Below, piece after piece: positions 16,065-39,218 of a DNA stretch of 64,000 nucleotides. Every line of letters begins with the position of its first letter. Within the stretch, counting starts at the first letter, position 1. The notes below the pieces were generated by a model, which worked only from the letters and a program-made list of their open reading frames with translations, ran no database searches and had not been told where the DNA came from. The DNA comes from an uncultured Clostridia bacterium. GTDB lineage: Bacteria > Bacillota > Clostridia > TANB77 > CAG-508. The stretch covers positions 6,799-70,798 of the forward strand of contig CALXKE010000004.1 of assembly GCA_944388805.1 (NCBI GenBank). Direction: 5' to 3'. The position numbers and the translations under genes were made by a program.

Positions 16065-16237
16065 GACAAATCTCGCTTCTCGAGAACTTTTCTCTACTTT
16101 TCTAACTTAACTTTATATATTTAAGTTCTCGAAGAAGCGTAAAGATTTGTCGACGCGAAAAATTGCGTAGCAATTTTTCTGTGCAACGTTTTTTTGTGGT
16201 ATAGGAAAAAGTCATTTTTCCTATACCACAAAAAAAA
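16065..16237. repeat. Three-hairpin intergenic element, family PE2, copy b
   Basis: Same architecture and about 60 nt of near-identity with copy a. The third hairpin tttttttgtggtatagg..cctataccacaaaaaaa directly follows the 6S RNA 3' end. Confidence 0.8.
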
Positions 16238-16441
16238 GCCCCGCCTTAGCCGTCAGCTTTTTAATTTTTAAGGACCTGCTCCTAAAAACAGGTGGGTGCC
16301 TACCTAAATACTTATGGGCTTCTCACTATATACTGTGAGCATGCACGCCATATTCGAGAGATCAGCCCCTCTTATAATTTGTTGGTTCTAAAAATTATGC
16401 TCTTACGTACTACGCAGGGATTTTTGTAATCCTTATTAGAT
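16230..16441 (-). ncRNA. ssrS: 6S RNA (SsrS)
   Basis: Minus strand ..GCGUGCAUGCUCACAGUAUAUAGUGAGAAGCCCAUAAG.. parallels the E. coli 6S central segment GAGCAUGCUCGGUCCGUCCGAGAAGCCUUAAAAC (recalled from memory). The 5' CCCUGC-UAG-CGU-AGC-UAAUUUUUAG pairs with the 3' CUUAAAAAUUA-GCU-ACG-CUA-GCGGGG to form a long closing helix. The RNA ends in U8, is GC-richer than the flanks, has no ORF and is about 200 nt. Confidence 0.65.
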
Positions 16442-27060: not shown

Positions 27061-27098
27061 AGTAGACCTTTAGGAACGTACCCAATCGTTTCAAAATT

Positions 27099-27136
27099 GA
27101 AAACGGGCCTAGAAATTTTCATTCTAGACTCGTTTT
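27099..27136. terminator. Bidirectional terminator between convergent spoIVA and the phosphatase gene
   Basis: aaaacgggcctagaa-attttca-ttctagactcgttttt, an imperfect stem with flanking A and T runs. Confidence 0.55.
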
Positions 27137-27149
27137 TCTTAATTCTCAT

Positions 27150-27680
27150 TTATGCTTCTCTCTTTAAGAAAAAGTATTCTAAGTTGCCTGACATCATTTT
27201 TTCATTCTTGATGTCATAGATTCTCTTAATTATTCTCATAATTCCGTTGCTTGTACATACCAGAATTACAGAATCATCTGGATAAGTTGCAAGAATTGTT
27301 TCAATCGCTTTTCTTACTCTTGCTTCTACATCTTGATGTCTTTCACCATGAGGTGGTACATAATCTCCTTGTTGAAAGGATTTTCGAAGTTTCTGATTAA
27401 CATCCTCTTTCTTCAATCCTTCCCAATCTCCAAGACTGATTTCTGTAAAGCCATCCTCTTCAATGAATTCCCGGTTTAGGAAAATAGCTTGTAATGTGTG
27501 TTTTGTTCTTTTAAGAGGTGAACAATATATCGCATCAAAATGATATGTTTTAAAAGTTTCTTTCATTTTTTCTGCTTTTTTCCTTCCCTCTTCTGTAATA
27601 TCTGTATCTATTCTTCCACAAAACCTTCCCTCTTTGTTAAACTTAGTTTCTGCATGTCTCAAAAAAATGATTTGTTTCAT
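27150..27680 (-). CDS. Histidine phosphatase (PGAM-like) family protein, short form
   Basis: IIFLRHAETKFN (RHG-type catalytic motif) and ..SPLKRTKHT.. Start at MKQIIF (ATG 27680), 7 nt after AAGGAG. Contains an in-frame CGG (27471-27473). Confidence 0.8.
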   Translation of the reverse strand: MKQIIFLRHAETKFNKEGRFCGRIDTDITEEGRKKAEKMKETFKTYHFDAIYCSPLKRTKHTLQAIFLNREFIEEDGFTEISLGDWEGLKKEDVNQKLRKSFQQGDYVPPHGERHQDVEARVRKAIETILATYPDDSVILVCTSNGIMRIIKRIYDIKNEKMMSGNLEYFFLKREA

Positions 27681-27702
27681 ATGCACTCTCCTTATATGTT
27701 AT

Positions 27703-28236
27703 TTAAAACTGAAAACTTTTTACCTCACAGTTTTTAATACATAACGGTAAACATGCTCCACTTTCAGGTATTTCATTGAAATAACAATTAACAGCTATAC
27801 TAACACCTCCATGAGTTACTAATAAAATATTCTTATCTTTATACTTCTTTTTTATCTCGTCTAAAAATAAAAATATTCTATTAAAGAAAACTCTTATATT
27901 TTCAGCTTTTTCATAAGTTACATTTTTCTTGTAATTCCAAAACTCCTGAAAATCAAAATCATCTTTAGACATTCCTTCCATTTCTCCGAAATCTCTCTCA
28001 GAGATTCTTTCATCAAAGATAATAGAAATATTCTTCTCAGAATTAATGATTTCAGCCGTCTGTCTTGCTCTTTTTAATGGTGAACAAATAATGAAATCAA
28101 TGTTTTCTTCTTTTAGCTTTTCCATTGTTTCTTTTGCCTGTTCTATTCCCTTAGCATTTAACTCAATATCTGCTTTTCCTTGTACTTTACCATACAAGTT
28201 CCAGTCTGTTTCTCCATGCCTTGTTACATATAACAT
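27703..28236 (-). CDS. Histidine phosphatase (PGAM-like) family protein, short form
   Basis: MLYVTRHGETDWN.., SPLKRARQT, LLVTHGGV. 177 aa; 3-nt gap to the upstream gene. Confidence 0.8.
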   Translation of the reverse strand: MLYVTRHGETDWNLYGKVQGKADIELNAKGIEQAKETMEKLKEENIDFIICSPLKRARQTAEIINSEKNISIIFDERISERDFGEMEGMSKDDFDFQEFWNYKKNVTYEKAENIRVFFNRIFLFLDEIKKKYKDKNILLVTHGGVSIAVNCYFNEIPESGACLPLCIKNCEVKSFQF

Positions 28237-28239
28237 ATT

Positions 28240-29322
28240 TTACCTCCATACTTGAAATCCTTTTGCAGAAAATGAACAAATCTGTTTTAATTCTGCACAA
28301 ATCCCTACTTCATTAATCTGTGCTATTTTTCTAACATAATTTCTCAGCTCGTTATCCTTTTCAGGAAATCCATGCCGATTAACCGCATCTTCTCCAATGG
28401 TAATACTACCATCGGAAAAGTTCATTTCACCTATTTGTATACCATTTTCACAATAGGTAAAATTACTATTTTCTGGTAATTCCAATCCGAAACCATGAGG
28501 AATATAGTGATTTTTAGATTTTTCTTCCTTTTTCACTATATATATAGGCTTCCCCGGACTTGTGAGCAATGTTGCAAGTCCTTCAGTTTTTTGAACACCA
28601 ATCAATACTTCATGTATTGTAGGCATTCCGTAATGAGAAACATTTAAAATTTCCTTTCCCATTTTTCCTGCTAAAACTTGCTTACAGAAAAAATAATTCC
28701 TTTTTCTATTAAAGGATTCCAGCATTTCTGCCATTTGATAAAACCTTTCTGCCGTCTTTCCTGTTATAAATCTCAGATACCGGTACTCTCCTAACCTTTC
28801 TGTTAAGATACTATTATAGTACCAGTTTCCTATAACAGGATACAGCTGTTCCTTATACTCACATGCTGAAGCATGAACAAGCATGTAGTAACCTTTCTTC
28901 ATTCCTATGCGATTCTCATCATTCTCCAGATGACACAAAGAAATAAAATGATTACCTCTAGCAAAATTCCAATCATACTTTGATGTGTCTGCCAAAGCTT
29001 TCTCACATCTCTCTTTGAATTCTGTTATACTTATATCAGAACTTATTTTATACAAAGCTGTACCACAGACATTAATTGTAGCATCTACTGGAATGAATGG
29101 AGTATCTGCTTGCTTCCAGAGATATGCAGCACCTGTAAAGAAACCGCCCCGCATTCTTGTAACATTATGTGCAATCCCTAAATCAGACATTGCATAAATA
29201 TCACAAGTTTTCTGTGTTGATGAAAGTTTTGTTGCAACTTTTGAAATCAACTTTTCTGTTGTTTCTAACTCCCGAAGCACTTTCCTCTGTGTTCTATCAT
29301 TTAATGTCAGATTATAAATCAT
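28240..29322 (-). CDS. Hypothetical protein with divergent RtcB (RNA 3'-phosphate ligase)-like active-site motifs
   Basis: Motif-level resemblance to RtcB, recalled from memory: PVDATINVCG (D..CG metal site), ARGNHFISL (GNHF), MLVHASA (LHSGSRG position), VSHYG (CHHN position), IPHGFG (SHGAGR position). 25/60 G+C at 28741-28800; five in-frame CGG Arg codons. Confidence 0.45.
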   Translation of the reverse strand: MIYNLTLNDRTQRKVLRELETTEKLISKVATKLSSTQKTCDIYAMSDLGIAHNVTRMRGGFFTGAAYLWKQADTPFIPVDATINVCGTALYKISSDISITEFKERCEKALADTSKYDWNFARGNHFISLCHLENDENRIGMKKGYYMLVHASACEYKEQLYPVIGNWYYNSILTERLGEYRYLRFITGKTAERFYQMAEMLESFNRKRNYFFCKQVLAGKMGKEILNVSHYGMPTIHEVLIGVQKTEGLATLLTSPGKPIYIVKKEEKSKNHYIPHGFGLELPENSNFTYCENGIQIGEMNFSDGSITIGEDAVNRHGFPEKDNELRNYVRKIAQINEVGICAELKQICSFSAKGFQVWR

Positions 29323-29482
29323 ATTGTCTCCTCCTTTATTTTTACATTAAATGTTTTTTGTTACAAATCCTTTATTAAAGAATTTAAGTTTAGCATTTCA
29401 AGCATTTAATTTCTTGCTTAATATATGCCCATTTTATTTTATGTTAATCTCATTCTCTAAAGTTTTCAAAATACAGTTTTTT

Positions 29483-29509
29483 AAAATTGATAAAAAAATT
29501 ATCAATTTT
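29483..29509. promoter_or_regulatory. Perfect palindrome, candidate operator in the divergent promoter region
   Basis: aaaattgata-aaaaaaa-tatcaatttt between the RtcB-like gene start (29322) and the STAND gene start (29604). Confidence 0.35.
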
Positions 29510-29541
29510 TATTTTCTTTATGGCGATATTCCCTTCTATCC

Positions 29542-29571
29542 TTGTACTTTTATGTAAAATAATGGTATAAT
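29542..29571 (+). promoter_or_regulatory. Candidate extended -10 promoter of the STAND-type gene
   Basis: TTGTAC (29542-29547), 18-nt spacer, TGgTATAAT (-10 hexamer at 29566-29571). Confidence 0.4.
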
Positions 29572-29603
29572 AAAAATAGATTTTGTTATTGATGGAGGAA
29601 CCT

Positions 29604-31895
29604 ATGGAACAAGATATCGTAAAAACAAACAGAGCAAAACTATTATCTGATTTTATTAATGAAATGAAAGTATCTATAAAAAAACATAATATAAAAGGAG
29701 AATTACCTAGCAAAACATATATCTATACCAGAATTGCAGATTATACCCATTATGCAGAAGTGAGTATCCGAAAATTTTTGACTGGTAGTATTCCAAAAGA
29801 CATTCCTAGTTTTTTGCAAGGAATCCTAGAATATGCAAAATTGGTACAAGTGGATGATTCTAAGATTGATACATTTGCCAAAAATTATTTATCTGCTACC
29901 AATACAGTTGTTTTTCAGGATACAACTATCCAAACCAAAAATAATTTAATTCCTCAAGACTTAAGCAAAATTATTCGTTCTCAAAAACTAACTTCATTTT
30001 TAGATGATTTTATCAATCATCCTATTAATATTGCTTATATTTATGGATATAAATTAGGTGGAAAATCAAAATCTGTTATGGCATATATGTATGATTTGAG
30101 CTTAAAAAATAAATTTGAAAATATGATTTGGATCAATCTAAAAAGGGAAAATCAATTATCTACTATTTTAGATACTATTTTGCTTTTCAATTTAGAAAAT
30201 AAAGCAGAAATCAAACCTGAAGAAAAACAAGATGCCTGTCTAGAGTTTATAAAAAGCAGTAAATCTATCCTTATATTCGATTTTGATGATGACATTATCC
30301 AAGATGAAACCATTACCTTTATAAAAAACTTTTCTAAAATTTCAAAAATAGTAATGATTACTTCTATTCCTTATCATCAATATGAAAATTCCTTAGATAC
30401 CTATTGTTCTAGTTTTTGTATTAACGACTTCATTTCTAAGGAAGAGCTAAAAGCTATGCTTCATACAACAGAAGACTTCAAAAAAATTATAGATATGCAA
30501 CCTTCATTAGTCGATACATTATATTCCATTACTGGTGGCATTCCATTTGCCTCTATCTATTTAATGAAAAAAATTGTCAATGCCAATAAGCTTGGAATTT
30601 CTTTAGAAAAAGCTATTTCTAAATATACAAAAACAAATGAAGATTATAAACTCATGTCAGAAAAAATCATTCATGATATATGGAAAGAATTAAGTCCAAT
30701 CGCAAAAAAAATCGTCATTATTTGTGCAAATTTTAAGTATACCATATCAATTGAACTTGTTTCCTACATATTGCATTTAGATATATTATCAACTGAGTGG
30801 CAAGAAGCTATTACAGAATGTTATACAAATGATTTATTAATCCCGATTATTCAAAATAATCCTAGATTAGATATGCACAATTTAATCAAAACACTTGTCT
30901 TAGTAAATGCTTCTGAAGAAGATTTTGATAAAGAAACATTTTTGAAACAATTGGCAAAATTTTATATGGATAAATCTGCCTATGTAGGTGAATGTTATAA
31001 TGACATTTCTAAATTAAAATTATTTGATGAATTAGACGAATGGAACATTACAAAACAAGTTTTAAATATGTTAGAAGAAAATATATTATATAAAGAATAT
31101 ATTACCATTATTAGAAATTTAAAATACTATATTTATGTTAGAGGTATGTGGAATAAAGGTGAAGATTCCCCACATTTAAAAAGAGCGAAAATGGCAAATA
31201 TGATTCAAGATAAAAATGAGGAATTAGAAGCTTTATGTGATTATATTAATATCATGTCTAAATCACAAAACCAAGAAGAAGCAGAGAAATATTTAGATAT
31301 TGCTTCAAAAATTGTTGATAAAGGAAAAGATTCTTTAGAAAAACGTATTGTTTGCTTATTTTATCATGTAAAAGCTTTATATACTTGTAACTGTCTGAAA
31401 AATTACAAAGAAAGTTATGACATATGGATGAATATTAAAGAAAACTATTTTCCTTATATTAACGAATATCGAAAATTGGTAACAGATTTATGGATTACCA
31501 GATGTTATTTAAAAATCGAAAATGCTTTTGATTTAAAATATAACATGTTAATTGAACGTCTAGAAGAAGCCAAACTTGCCAATTTCACTCGTGGGCAAGC
31601 AGATTATCGCCTTTTATTAATTTCTTTGCTATTAGAAAATTATGTAACTAGTAAAGACACGAATCTTTTGAAAAAAGCAAATACGCAATTAAAAGCTTGC
31701 GAAAAATTTCTAAAAGACAATGATTTAGATGATATTCGAAACGAAGCTCTATATTATCGATTACAAACCATATACTCTGTTTATACAAATGACTTTGAAA
31801 AAGCTGAAGAATTTTGTCAAAAAGCTATTAAAGACTATGAAATGATGAATTGCAAAAAAGATATTGAGAGTTTGCTTGAAATTTTGAATCATTAG
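29604..31895 (+). CDS. STAND-type signal-transduction NTPase: N-terminal HTH-like region, P-loop NTPase, C-terminal TPR-like helical repeats
   Basis: Walker A GYKLGGKSKS and Walker B-like SILIFDFDDD. The N-terminal ~70 aa are HTH-like (..YTRIADYTHYAEVSIRKFLTG..). The C-terminal ~330 aa are helical and repeat-like. ATG 29604 is 5 nt after GGAGG. AT-rich, with no CGG. Confidence 0.65.
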   Translation: MEQDIVKTNRAKLLSDFINEMKVSIKKHNIKGELPSKTYIYTRIADYTHYAEVSIRKFLTGSIPKDIPSFLQGILEYAKLVQVDDSKIDTFAKNYLSATNTVVFQDTTIQTKNNLIPQDLSKIIRSQKLTSFLDDFINHPINIAYIYGYKLGGKSKSVMAYMYDLSLKNKFENMIWINLKRENQLSTILDTILLFNLENKAEIKPEEKQDACLEFIKSSKSILIFDFDDDIIQDETITFIKNFSKISKIVMITSIPYHQYENSLDTYCSSFCINDFISKEELKAMLHTTEDFKKIIDMQPSLVDTLYSITGGIPFASIYLMKKIVNANKLGISLEKAISKYTKTNEDYKLMSEKIIHDIWKELSPIAKKIVIICANFKYTISIELVSYILHLDILSTEWQEAITECYTNDLLIPIIQNNPRLDMHNLIKTLVLVNASEEDFDKETFLKQLAKFYMDKSAYVGECYNDISKLKLFDELDEWNITKQVLNMLEENILYKEYITIIRNLKYYIYVRGMWNKGEDSPHLKRAKMANMIQDKNEELEALCDYINIMSKSQNQEEAEKYLDIASKIVDKGKDSLEKRIVCLFYHVKALYTCNCLKNYKESYDIWMNIKENYFPYINEYRKLVTDLWITRCYLKIENAFDLKYNMLIERLEEAKLANFTRGQADYRLLLISLLLENYVTSKDTNLLKKANTQLKACEKFLKDNDLDDIRNEALYYRLQTIYSVYTNDFEKAEEFCQKAIKDYEMMNCKKDIESLLEILNH

Positions 31896-32019
31896 GGACG
31901 TGTCAAATTGGACATTTTTCGTTTAAAAGGGACAGATTAGGTCTGTCCCTTTTGTTTCATTTTGGAACATTGGGGACAGGTTAAATCGTTTCAAAATGAA
32001 ACGATTTGGCACGTCCCTA
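31893..32019. repeat. Compound palindromic element (GGGAC family) filling the gap between two convergent genes
   Basis: Termini TAGGGACGTGTCAAAT / ATTTGGCACGTCCCTA (1 mismatch). Inner hairpins are aaaagggacag-atta-ggtctgtccctttt and aatcgtttca-aaa-tgaaacgatt. Both flanking stop codons (TAG 31893-31895 plus strand, TAG at 32017-32019 minus strand) lie inside the terminal repeats. Confidence 0.85.
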
Positions 32020-33042
32020 TCGTTTCAGATTTTTTCTTCTTAATTGCCCACATGCTGCATCTATGTCTGATCCTAGTTCTCTTCTAATGGTTGCCACAAT
32101 CCCATGGTCATTCAAGTAATCTCTAAATTTCATGATATTTTCATTTGAACTTTTTGTATATGCTCCATTTTCAATTTTATTAATGGGAATTAAATTCACA
32201 TGGCAAAGCATCCCTTTTAACAATTTTACTAATCGTTTGGCATCTTCTAAGTTATCATTATTTTCTTTTGCTAATGCATACTCAAATGAGATTCTTCTAT
32301 GTGTTTTTTCAATATAGTCCTTACATGCTTGTAGTAATTCTTCTATATGATATCTATTGTTTACTGGCATCATTTCACTTCTTTGTTCATCTGTTGTTGC
32401 ATGTAAAGAAATGGATAAGGTACATTGTATATTTTCTTCTGCCAATTGATATATTTTTGGTACTAAACCACTTGTTGATATACTAATATGTCTTGCTCCT
32501 ATATTTAATCCTTTTGGATGGTTGATAATTCTAATTGCTTTTACGACATTATCATAATTATCTAATGGTTCTCCGATTCCCATAAAGACAATATTTGAGA
32601 TTCTAACATTGGCATCTCTTTCTACAGCCATAATTTGTTCAATAATTTCTCCACTACTTAAATTTCTTGCAAATGGAATTCCTGTTGATGCACAAAATTT
32701 ACATCCCATTTTACAACCAATTTGAGATGATACACAGATGCTATATCCATAATGATATTGCATCAATACAGTTTCAATGGCATTTCCGTCTAAAACATCA
32801 AATAAATATTTTCTTGTTCCATCTGATGCTACTTGTTTTTTTAATATTTTAAATTCTTTTATTTCATAGATTTGTTTTAATTTTTCTCTTAATTCTAATG
32901 ATAAATTGGTCATTTCATCAAACTCAGAAACTCTTGCTTCATAAAGCCATTTATATATTTGTTCTGCTCGAAATGGCTTTTCTCCGATTTCTTTTAGTTC
33001 TTCTTTTAATTCATCTAATGTATAGTCTTTAATATTTTTCAT
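32017..33042 (-). CDS. rlmN: 23S rRNA/tRNA adenine-C2 methyltransferase RlmN (radical SAM)
   Basis: CKMGCKFCAS radical-SAM motif, ..GMGEPL.., ..SLHA.. Start set at MKNIKDY (ATG 33042) behind AGAGAGG. Confidence 0.9.
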   Translation of the reverse strand: MKNIKDYTLDELKEELKEIGEKPFRAEQIYKWLYEARVSEFDEMTNLSLELREKLKQIYEIKEFKILKKQVASDGTRKYLFDVLDGNAIETVLMQYHYGYSICVSSQIGCKMGCKFCASTGIPFARNLSSGEIIEQIMAVERDANVRISNIVFMGIGEPLDNYDNVVKAIRIINHPKGLNIGARHISISTSGLVPKIYQLAEENIQCTLSISLHATTDEQRSEMMPVNNRYHIEELLQACKDYIEKTHRRISFEYALAKENNDNLEDAKRLVKLLKGMLCHVNLIPINKIENGAYTKSSNENIMKFRDYLNDHGIVATIRRELGSDIDAACGQLRRKNLKR

Positions 33043-38728: not shown

Positions 38729-38778
38729 AAAGAACCACCCCATCGACTCTCATTGAAAGTCGGTGGGGTGGTTCTTTT
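38729..38778 (-). terminator. Strong GC-rich terminator after the ABC-exporter operon / small TM gene
   Basis: aaaagaaccaccccatcgac..gtcggtggggtggttctttt, about 18 bp of stem with T-runs on both strands. Confidence 0.75.
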
Positions 38779-38788
38779 ATTCGTCTTT

Positions 38789-39154
38789 TTACGCTTCTAA
38801 TTTCCTTCGAATGTATCGAATGAAAATCCATAAGCGATGGCAGACAATTCTCCACCAAGTAGGAATGAAACCTACTGTGCTCACACTAGCTAACATCCAG
38901 AACAAAAATACTTCTCCGATTCCACTATGTTCACACTCGGTTGTCATCCCTACGATAAGGGTCACAATCCCCATTATCCAGATAAAAGGAATCAGAAGGA
39001 TGGACCGCCTAAGGGCGACGGAATCATCTCTCTCATCATCGAAATTCTCCAATCTAACCCAGATTGGCATTGCTTCCTCCTCCTTCCACTTGGGTAACTG
39101 TTTGCTGAGAAATTTCTCAAATTTCTTCAGCATGATGATAATCTTTTTCTTCAT
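38789..39154 (-). CDS. Small membrane protein, unknown function, in a GC-richer islet
   Basis: 121 aa with 2 predicted TMs (ILLIPFIWIMGIVTLIVGM, VFLFWMLASVSTVGFIPTWW). ATG 39154 follows GAGGG. 25/60 G+C at 38941-39000 and one in-frame CGG (39005-39007). Confidence 0.45.
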   Translation of the reverse strand: MKKKIIIMLKKFEKFLSKQLPKWKEEEAMPIWVRLENFDDERDDSVALRRSILLIPFIWIMGIVTLIVGMTTECEHSGIGEVFLFWMLASVSTVGFIPTWWRIVCHRLWIFIRYIRRKLEA

Positions 39155-39218
39155 TTTTCCCTCTTTTCTTTACTCCTGTGTTTACAGTTACACTTATATT
39201 ACACCACATTTTACATAA

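Follow-up and report, generated by a model that had tools for sequence, protein, structure and literature searches.

A 64-kb stretch of DNA from an uncultured Clostridia bacterium (contig CALXKE010000004.1 of assembly GCA_944388805.1), referred to here as the window, contains between spoIVA and rlmN a compact cassette in which the gene for a remote RtcB-like protein heads an operon with two histidine phosphatase genes, designated HP1 and HP2, and lies back to back with a gene for a STAND NTPase (Table 1). The initial annotation of this DNA had flagged a block of three packed minus-strand open reading frames (ORFs), and these were found where it had placed them; the intergenic gaps were re-measured as 3 and 16 nt, and a Shine-Dalgarno sequence precedes each gene. 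The HP2 ORF opens at GTG 27686, giving 178 amino acids (aa), and the ATG at 27680 is the likelier start because it fits the ribosome-binding site (RBS) better and yields a protein of homologue length, 176 aa. On the opposite strand, the STAND ORF opens at TTG 29583, with ATG 29604 as its most likely start. The STAND gene belongs to the RtcB-like/phosphatase unit, and the unit is larger than earlier flagged.

Table 1. Features of the RtcB-like/phosphatase/STAND cassette, in window coordinates
Feature	Position	Strand	Remarks
Inserted segment	27062-32022		4.96 kb between convergent spoIVA and rlmN
Left border repeat	27069-27101	plus	TTTAGGAACGTACCCAATCGTTTCAAAATTGAA; resembles reverse complement of 31989-32021
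HP2 gene	27150-27680	minus	His_Phos_1 paralogue; 176 aa from ATG 27680
HP1 gene	27703-28236	minus	177 aa; canonical His_Phos_1 phosphatase
RtcB-like gene	28240-29322	minus	360 aa; first gene of the operon
Divergent control region	29323-29603		G+C 0.22
Perfect palindrome AAAATTGATAA-N5-TTATCAATTTT	29483-29509		Putative operator, midway between both start codons
STAND NTPase gene	29604-31895	plus	763 aa from ATG 29604; RBS GGAGGA
Terminator-like hairpin	31924-31954	plus	3' of STAND gene; 14-bp stem, then T-run
Right border repeat	31989-32021	minus	Part of a longer palindrome beside the rlmN stop

The RtcB-like protein belongs to a family that is new and remote in sequence, with a fold of a known kind. 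No match to the 360-aa protein was obtained in Pfam or NCBIfam (none at E <= 1 in either) or in PADLOC, and neither phmmer nor a family profile matched it to PDB sequences. An AlphaFold2 model built on a 25-sequence alignment, with a predicted local distance difference test (pLDDT) score of 92.3 and a predicted template modelling (pTM) score of 0.90, was then compared with known structures using Foldseek. Nine matches in the PDB had E <= 1e-3 (5e-6 to 1e-4; TMq 0.40-0.51), all of them RtcB (human RTCB and Pyrococcus horikoshii RtcB chains), and the tenth match had E 0.13. Among the predicted viral structures of BFVD, the sole significant match was a phage '3'-phosphate/5'-hydroxy nucleic acid ligase' (E 3.6e-8, TM 0.54). 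The RtcB fold suggested in the initial annotation was thereby borne out, the significant matches being exclusively RtcB.

The residues proposed there as the metal and GMP (guanosine monophosphate) site, namely D..CG, GNHF, a His in VHASA, SHY and PHGFG, are likewise present, and are invariant in the 25-sequence family alignment as D47 (AMxDLG), D80xTxNxCG87, G123-N-H-F, V-H150-A-S-A-x-E-x-K, H230-Y-G-M-P and P-H276-G-x-G. Across 93 representatives (clusters at 50% identity), D47, D80, N84, C86, N124, H125, H150, H230 and H276 are near-invariant, and Cys86 is replaced by Asp alone, in 15 of the 93; Asp is another metal ligand, so this exchange keeps metal binding. The family thus appears to retain, nearly invariant, the RtcB metal site (Asp, Cys, three His) together with the histidine that is charged with GMP. 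The order of motifs (MPD, D..CG, GNHF, H, H and a His-Gly nucleophile) is that of RtcB, as is the fold, whereas the protein is about 50 aa shorter than the 408-aa E. coli enzyme and the spacing from D to C is 6 in the family versus 3 in RtcB.

For profile comparison, E. coli rtcB was taken from NC_000913, and partial Thermus, Pyrococcus and eukaryotic RtcB sequences were rebuilt from PDB alignments. Alignment by hhalign placed GNHF/VHAS (G123-N-H-F, H150) on N167/H168 and H185 of E. coli RtcB (E 1.5e-4), and a collinear second segment placed H276 of PHGFG on H337 of SHGAGR (E 0.067), H337 being the guanylylated residue of the E. coli protein. Against a single RtcB sequence the comparison was weak (4% probability); the 93-sequence profile aligned with a 15-sequence RtcB alignment at no more than 52% probability, through the GNHF/His segment. 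Because the fold matches are to RtcB only and the putative metal ligands and nucleophile are near-invariant, we conclude that the 360-aa protein represents a distinct and, by prediction, catalytically intact family of the RtcB superfamily, outside RtcB as curated models define it.

Among 5.8 billion proteins searched, 156 were relatives of the protein; all were listed at source as no more than 'hypothetical protein', and Pfam assigned no domain to any of them. The family is rare (334 clusters among 1.84 billion representatives), and a scan of one genome per species found relatives in 116 species, all uncultured gut Clostridia or Bacilli. The coupling to histidine phosphatases, first noted from the window alone, proved to be conserved: a His_Phos_1 gene lies directly downstream of the RtcB-like gene, often overlapping it, at 59 of the 74 loci with enough downstream sequence (~80%), and the linkage was also seen in every distant architecture examined. 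A phosphatase gene follows a TIR fusion whose neighbours include a ThsB-like TIR and a caspase, a metallophosphoesterase fusion adjoining an integrase, a STAND fusion, and an 856-aa long form adjoining relaxase-like and ParB-like genes (read from ORF translations, the record being unannotated). A distant clade of stand-alone proteins shows the same pairing, on a Mob_Pre/ArdA/IS66 element.

Further recurrent partners likewise hydrolyse phosphoesters or nucleotides, and comprise a HIT protein, a PHP protein, a His_Phos-GDPD fusion and an N-terminal Metallophos domain. In two distant clades the gene immediately preceding the RtcB-like one encodes the HIT protein (HxHxH; locus L181, 1668-2102; locus L180, 2551-2982); HIT enzymes hydrolyse nucleotidyl-phosphate or phosphoramidate adducts, and for this reason such a partner fits nucleotidyl-transfer chemistry. 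The His_Phos-GDPD fusion (585 aa; GDPD denoting glycerophosphodiester phosphodiesterase) is encoded downstream of the RtcB-like gene at loci L170 (3265-5022) and L171 (4697-6454). Upstream, the neighbourhood survey found the STAND partner in 31 loci, and a LysR-type regulator directly precedes the RtcB-like gene where the STAND gene is absent. LysR was the commonest family in a Pfam census of 150 neighbouring ORFs (20 of them), followed by Mob_Pre relaxases (8) and serine recombinases (5). RtcA, archease, PrfH and RtcR were found neither in the window cassette nor in the locus surveys of its relatives, and are not among the 25 most frequent of the 113 families matched in that census.

Both short proteins downstream of the RtcB-like gene are His_Phos_1 (PF00300) phosphatases as had been proposed (E 2e-46 for HP1, 3e-41 for HP2), and are 27% identical to each other. 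HP1 has the full catalytic set, R6-H7-G8, R56, E87 and H142; HP2 retains the RH, Arg and Glu of that set. A change of the second catalytic His to Ser is common to all HP2 orthologues of the window's clade, and His-Asn (SHN) is found in other clades. The best NCBIfam model for both proteins is the alpha-ribazole phosphatase CobC (TIGR03162), below its cut-off (125.0 and 103.6 versus 162.9 bits), and both fall under every NCBIfam equivalog cut-off; their solved relatives include CobC, PhoE and glucosyl-3-phosphoglycerate phosphatase. HP1 and HP2 align over their full length with CobC, PhoE and PspA, and HP1 has the complete RHG/R/E/H set; unlike those enzymes, they have an RtcB-like genomic partner, and the second catalytic His of HP2 is Ser in this clade.

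Two partner lineages can be distinguished, an HP1 type (RHG...HG) with the canonical catalytic set, which is the only partner in some clades, and an HP2 type (RHA...HN), which is the only partner in others and accompanies RtcB-like genes of distant clades. Downstream of the TIR, metallophosphoesterase and STAND fusions, the phosphatase has the HN motif of the HP2 lineage. In the window's clade both lineages are usually present, most members having gained a canonical HP1 gene, inserted ahead of that for the ancestral partner HP2 and after the RtcB-like gene; in four relatives the Ser-form phosphatase stands alone.

The divergently transcribed protein matches Pfam NB-ARC weakly (0.0039) and has a Walker A motif, GYKLGGKS. 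Its AlphaFold2 model (pLDDT 84) gave the STAND-TPR protein PH0952 (6mfv) as the best Foldseek match (E 1e-9), with plant NLRs, CED-4 and Apaf-1 next, which confirms the STAND fold, an NB-ARC-type NTPase with a helical/TPR sensor. The family is narrow, with 53 matches, all at least 43% identical over full length, and appears dedicated to this cassette. The N-terminal 100 aa hold an invariant YxRxxDxTxYxEVSIRKFLTGxxPKD and match the phi29 p4 activator, DUF4368 and Penicillinase_R weakly.

The perfect palindrome between the two divergent genes is unique within the 64-kb window. It occurs once per locus in the STAND/RtcB-like intergenic region of all 31 STAND-bearing loci (29 exact copies, two with a single mismatch), even where the encoded proteins share just 42-50% identity; at loci that do not have the STAND gene, those of LysR type included, it is absent from that position. 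As consensus matches alone, candidate promoter elements were located for the STAND gene (-35 TTGTAC, 29542-29547; TGgTATAAT, 29563-29571) and, on the minus strand, for the operon (TTAACA, 29447-29442, with TATATT, 29425-29420, or else TAAAAT, 29436-29431). All 10 aligned loci have the predicted -10 TATAAT of the STAND gene unchanged.

Horizontal acquisition between spoIVA and rlmN, which the initial annotation had suspected, is supported by empty sites in sister species, and the acquired unit is larger than the block it described. In cassette-free relatives, among them L195 and L199 (SpoIVA 95-97% identical) and many at 82-85%, the convergent spoIVA and rlmN genes are spaced by ~120-160 bp, and homology to the window ends at 27061 and resumes at 32023-32029. 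Because the two genes lie so close together in the sister species, the intervening 4.96 kb, STAND gene included, constitutes an insertion. The cassette is found at the same site in 18 related species. Inverted repeats of ~30 nt (TAGGrACGTrCCmAATCGTTTCA...) lie at its borders, their core motif occurring nowhere else in the window; these could represent a split ancestral bidirectional terminator or the terminal repeats of an inserted element. At locus L109 (CALXZX010000036.1, 1532-5326) a lone RtcB-like gene is situated between rlmN and spoIVA. The control region is gone, as are the genes for the STAND protein and both phosphatases, so this locus looks like a decayed copy of the cassette.

The base composition that had originally set the block apart was only partly confirmed. 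The G+C counts of 25/60 at 28741-28800 and 13/60 at 30001-30060 are exact, and in-frame CGG codons do lie at 27471, 28375, 28780, 29149 and 29272, but they total five and not six; one in-frame CGC is also present in the block, at 28909. The five represent 5/7 of all CGG codons in the window's 59 long ORFs. G+C over 27150-29322 is 0.326 as compared with a window mean of 0.282 (standard deviation 0.021, same-size windows), placing it at the 99th percentile, and G+C at third codon positions (GC3) is 0.23-0.26 in the three-gene block versus ~0.16 elsewhere in the window. However, the shift is confined to the RtcB-like (0.344) and HP2 (0.330) genes, those for HP1 (0.288) and the STAND protein (0.263) being ordinary, and the insert as a whole (0.293) equals its flanks. 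Composition alone would not reveal the acquisition of this segment.

About 37 relatives are long forms with one architecture, consisting of a variable N-terminal domain, a conserved 270-aa middle domain and the RtcB-like domain. The N-terminal domain is a TIR in 9 of 23 long forms (CBASS 'TIR-TM' PADLOC model, 7e-38); others have an N-terminal metallophosphoesterase, and PADLOC 'Effector Endonuclease' and PDC-S60 N-terminus models match. The middle domain, seen in P0174-P0244 (for example, residues ~200-475 of P0181) and also at locus L179 (3133-5703), immediately precedes the RtcB-like domain and has the consensus ..IIAGxSLxEAF..IFLTDP..IYFLPLLQIDHVVITDDFLLLRSTKLW... A Walker A motif is lacking, neither Pfam nor PDB sequences gave a match, and no counterpart of the domain occurs in the window or in 80 genome loci. 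In one relative, P0148, a STAND NTPase is fused to the RtcB-like domain. This protein was considered as a Rosetta-stone fusion and dismissed as such, because its STAND part barely resembles the STAND protein of the window (E 0.007).

Together, these findings suggest a model, to which about an even chance is given, in which 27062-32022 is a horizontally inserted, self-regulated and inducible cassette comprising an RtcB-type enzyme, a trimming phosphatase and a STAND regulator. The RtcB-like enzyme would use RtcB chemistry, charging itself with a nucleoside monophosphate on His276 and passing this to a phosphomonoester, with the 3'-phosphate or 2',3'-cyclic phosphate of a broken RNA as the most probable acceptor, after which a hydroxyl would attack the activated phosphate to form a phosphodiester. 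Both RNA ends and a nucleotide-like molecule are candidate substrates; the initial annotation had proposed end healing and sealing, or processing of a signalling nucleotide, as possible functions. The co-translated PGAM-type phosphatase would be the obligate second enzyme of the module, trimming a phosphate either on the substrate, which would yield a joinable end, or on the product, which would render the reaction irreversible. The most likely role of the STAND NTPase, which has a DNA-binding-like N-terminus and a TPR sensor, is to bind the palindrome lying between the promoters and to turn the operon on upon sensing a ligand.

Several known systems resemble parts of this arrangement. In E. 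coli rtcR/rtcBA, as here, a divergent, dedicated regulator of NTPase type is followed by a ligase and then an end-modifying enzyme; RtcR is a sigma-54 activator with a CARF domain, whereas the regulator of the cassette is a STAND protein with TPR repeats, and the partner of the RtcB-like enzyme is a PGAM-type phosphatase rather than the cyclase RtcA, archease or PrfH. MalT and GutR are STAND transcription regulators with TPR sensors, and the cassette shares with STAND regulators the NB-ARC-type NTPase joined to a helical/TPR sensor, the position adjoining a presumed target operon, and a palindrome between the promoters. Bacterial Pnkp/Hen1 and phage T4 Pnkp/Rnl1 likewise combine a phosphoesterase and a ligase in one operon or polypeptide, and the metallophosphoesterase fusions of the RtcB-like family recall the phosphatase-ligase arrangement of bacterial Pnkp. 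Pnkp and Rnl1 ligases are ATP-dependent, join a 5'-phosphate to a 3'-OH and need a kinase; in contrast, no kinase or Hen1 methyltransferase is linked to the cassette, and RtcB chemistry has the opposite end polarity. Finally, the long relatives resemble CBASS, Pycsar and Thoeris-type effectors in having an N-terminal TIR or metallophosphoesterase ahead of a C-terminal module, but that module is RtcB-like with an intact predicted active site, not SAVED, STING or SLOG, and the window cassette encodes neither an effector domain nor a signal maker of the cyclase or ThsB type.

A number of observations weigh against the proposed model, and some of them favour other explanations. Pfam PF01139 and the NCBIfam RtcB models match neither the window protein nor the 23 long relatives, TM-scores to RtcB are 0.4-0.54 with sequence identities of 9-14%, and D80..C86 and H230 were placed on D75/C78/H281 of RtcB by motif order, with no significant alignment. 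The low scores and the failure of RtcB sequence models would suit a protein in which the likeness to RtcB is a distant relic of the fold devoid of related chemistry, acting in structure or binding and linked to the phosphatase by no shared mechanism. This appears very improbable, since the RtcB metal ligands and the nucleotidyl-histidine position are kept across the ~93 diverse sequences, the common Cys-to-Asp substitution is one that keeps metal binding, and the partners are consistently hydrolases of phosphoesters or nucleotides. As for the partners, HP2 has no second catalytic His (Ser in TSNG, residues ~147-148), and the N-terminal domain of the STAND protein matches no helix-turn-helix family significantly, which, with the narrowness of its family, sets it apart from known STAND regulators. 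To our knowledge, canonical RtcB needs no phosphatase, and simple RNA repair leaves the role of the phosphatase unexplained because a 3'-phosphatase would destroy the RtcB substrate. Nor does simple repair explain the fusions to TIR or nuclease-type domains, a further departure from RtcB, and these suit the logic of an immune sensor and effector better than repair.

It is accordingly possible, if rather unlikely, that the RtcB-like/phosphatase pair is the core of unrecognised mobile immune or conflict systems, directed at phages or mobile elements, and does not serve repair. The RtcB-fold enzyme, instead of a cyclase or TIR protein, would be the sensor or signal generator, the signal being, for example, a nucleotide that has been joined or cyclised, or broken RNA with 2',3'-cyclic phosphate at its ends; the RtcB-like domain would drive TIR, nuclease or STAND modules, and the phosphatase would set a threshold by clearing the signal or the background substrate. 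In addition to regulating, the STAND protein could then serve as a partner sensor, and the window would hold a STAND-regulated, effector-less variant. The defence-type effector domains (TIR, metallophosphoesterase) at the N-termini of long relatives are in keeping with this, as are the joining of a STAND NTPase to the RtcB-like domain in P0148, the presence at other loci of ThsB-like TIR, caspase, integrase, relaxase, ArdA and HicB genes and IS elements, and the fact that the window cassette is itself an insertion. However, none of the four cassette proteins of the window matches a PADLOC-DB 2.0 model, such matches being limited to the N-terminal domains of distant fusions, and the window version has no recognisable effector. 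The commonest neighbours elsewhere are regulators (LysR or STAND) and not defence genes, the cassette is stable at one chromosomal site in the 18 related species, and the catalytic residues are conserved as for an enzyme, not a mere binding domain. The conflict function fails to explain the effector-less, regulator-linked and chromosomally stable form seen in the window. An alternative of another kind, judged improbable, is that the pair makes or recycles a small phosphodiester-linked metabolite, a GMP-activated phosphomonoester being joined to a hydroxyl and the product dephosphorylated by the CobC-like phosphatase, with STAND or LysR proteins sensing the metabolite. CobU and CobS build the cobamide nucleotide loop in this manner, by activating a phosphomonoester with GMP and joining it to a hydroxyl. 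CobC is the best NCBIfam model of both phosphatases and is among their solved relatives together with PhoE and glucosyl-3-phosphoglycerate phosphatase; many loci have, instead of the STAND gene, one for a LysR regulator, a type that typically responds to small molecules; one partner is the His_Phos-GDPD fusion; and one distant locus adjoins glycerate kinase and aminotransferase genes. Against it, the CobC scores fall under the family cut-off, no cobamide or other biosynthetic genes are linked, the family is rare, and the TIR/nuclease fusions and mobile-element contexts are hard to reconcile with metabolite synthesis.

No enzyme family other than RtcB is known to seal 3'-phosphate and 5'-OH ends, and what RtcB does in bacteria is a matter of continuing debate. 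The uses of RtcB chemistry would be widened by a second branch of the fold, invisible at the sequence level, and the phosphatase pairing together with TIR and nuclease-type fusions on mobile elements points either to a novel response to RNA damage or to a novel type of immune sensor. The literature searched, which included papers on conflict and defence, yielded no account of a module that joins an RtcB-like protein and a histidine phosphatase. The cassette is compact, consisting of four genes and a defined putative operator, so the question is directly testable with biochemical read-outs.

Elsewhere in the window, a 151-aa ORF on the plus strand (38763-39218) lies amid minus-strand genes; it has no Pfam match, and its G+C is 0.40 and its GC3 0.48 as against ~0.16. 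It may be no real gene, or another kind of higher-G+C stretch. Scans with Rfam and for tRNAs gave no match in the cassette region, and the search for tRNA genes was negative over the whole 64 kb. The sole Rfam match at gathering threshold in the window is a 6S RNA gene on the minus strand at 16234-16423 (RF00013, 90 bits).

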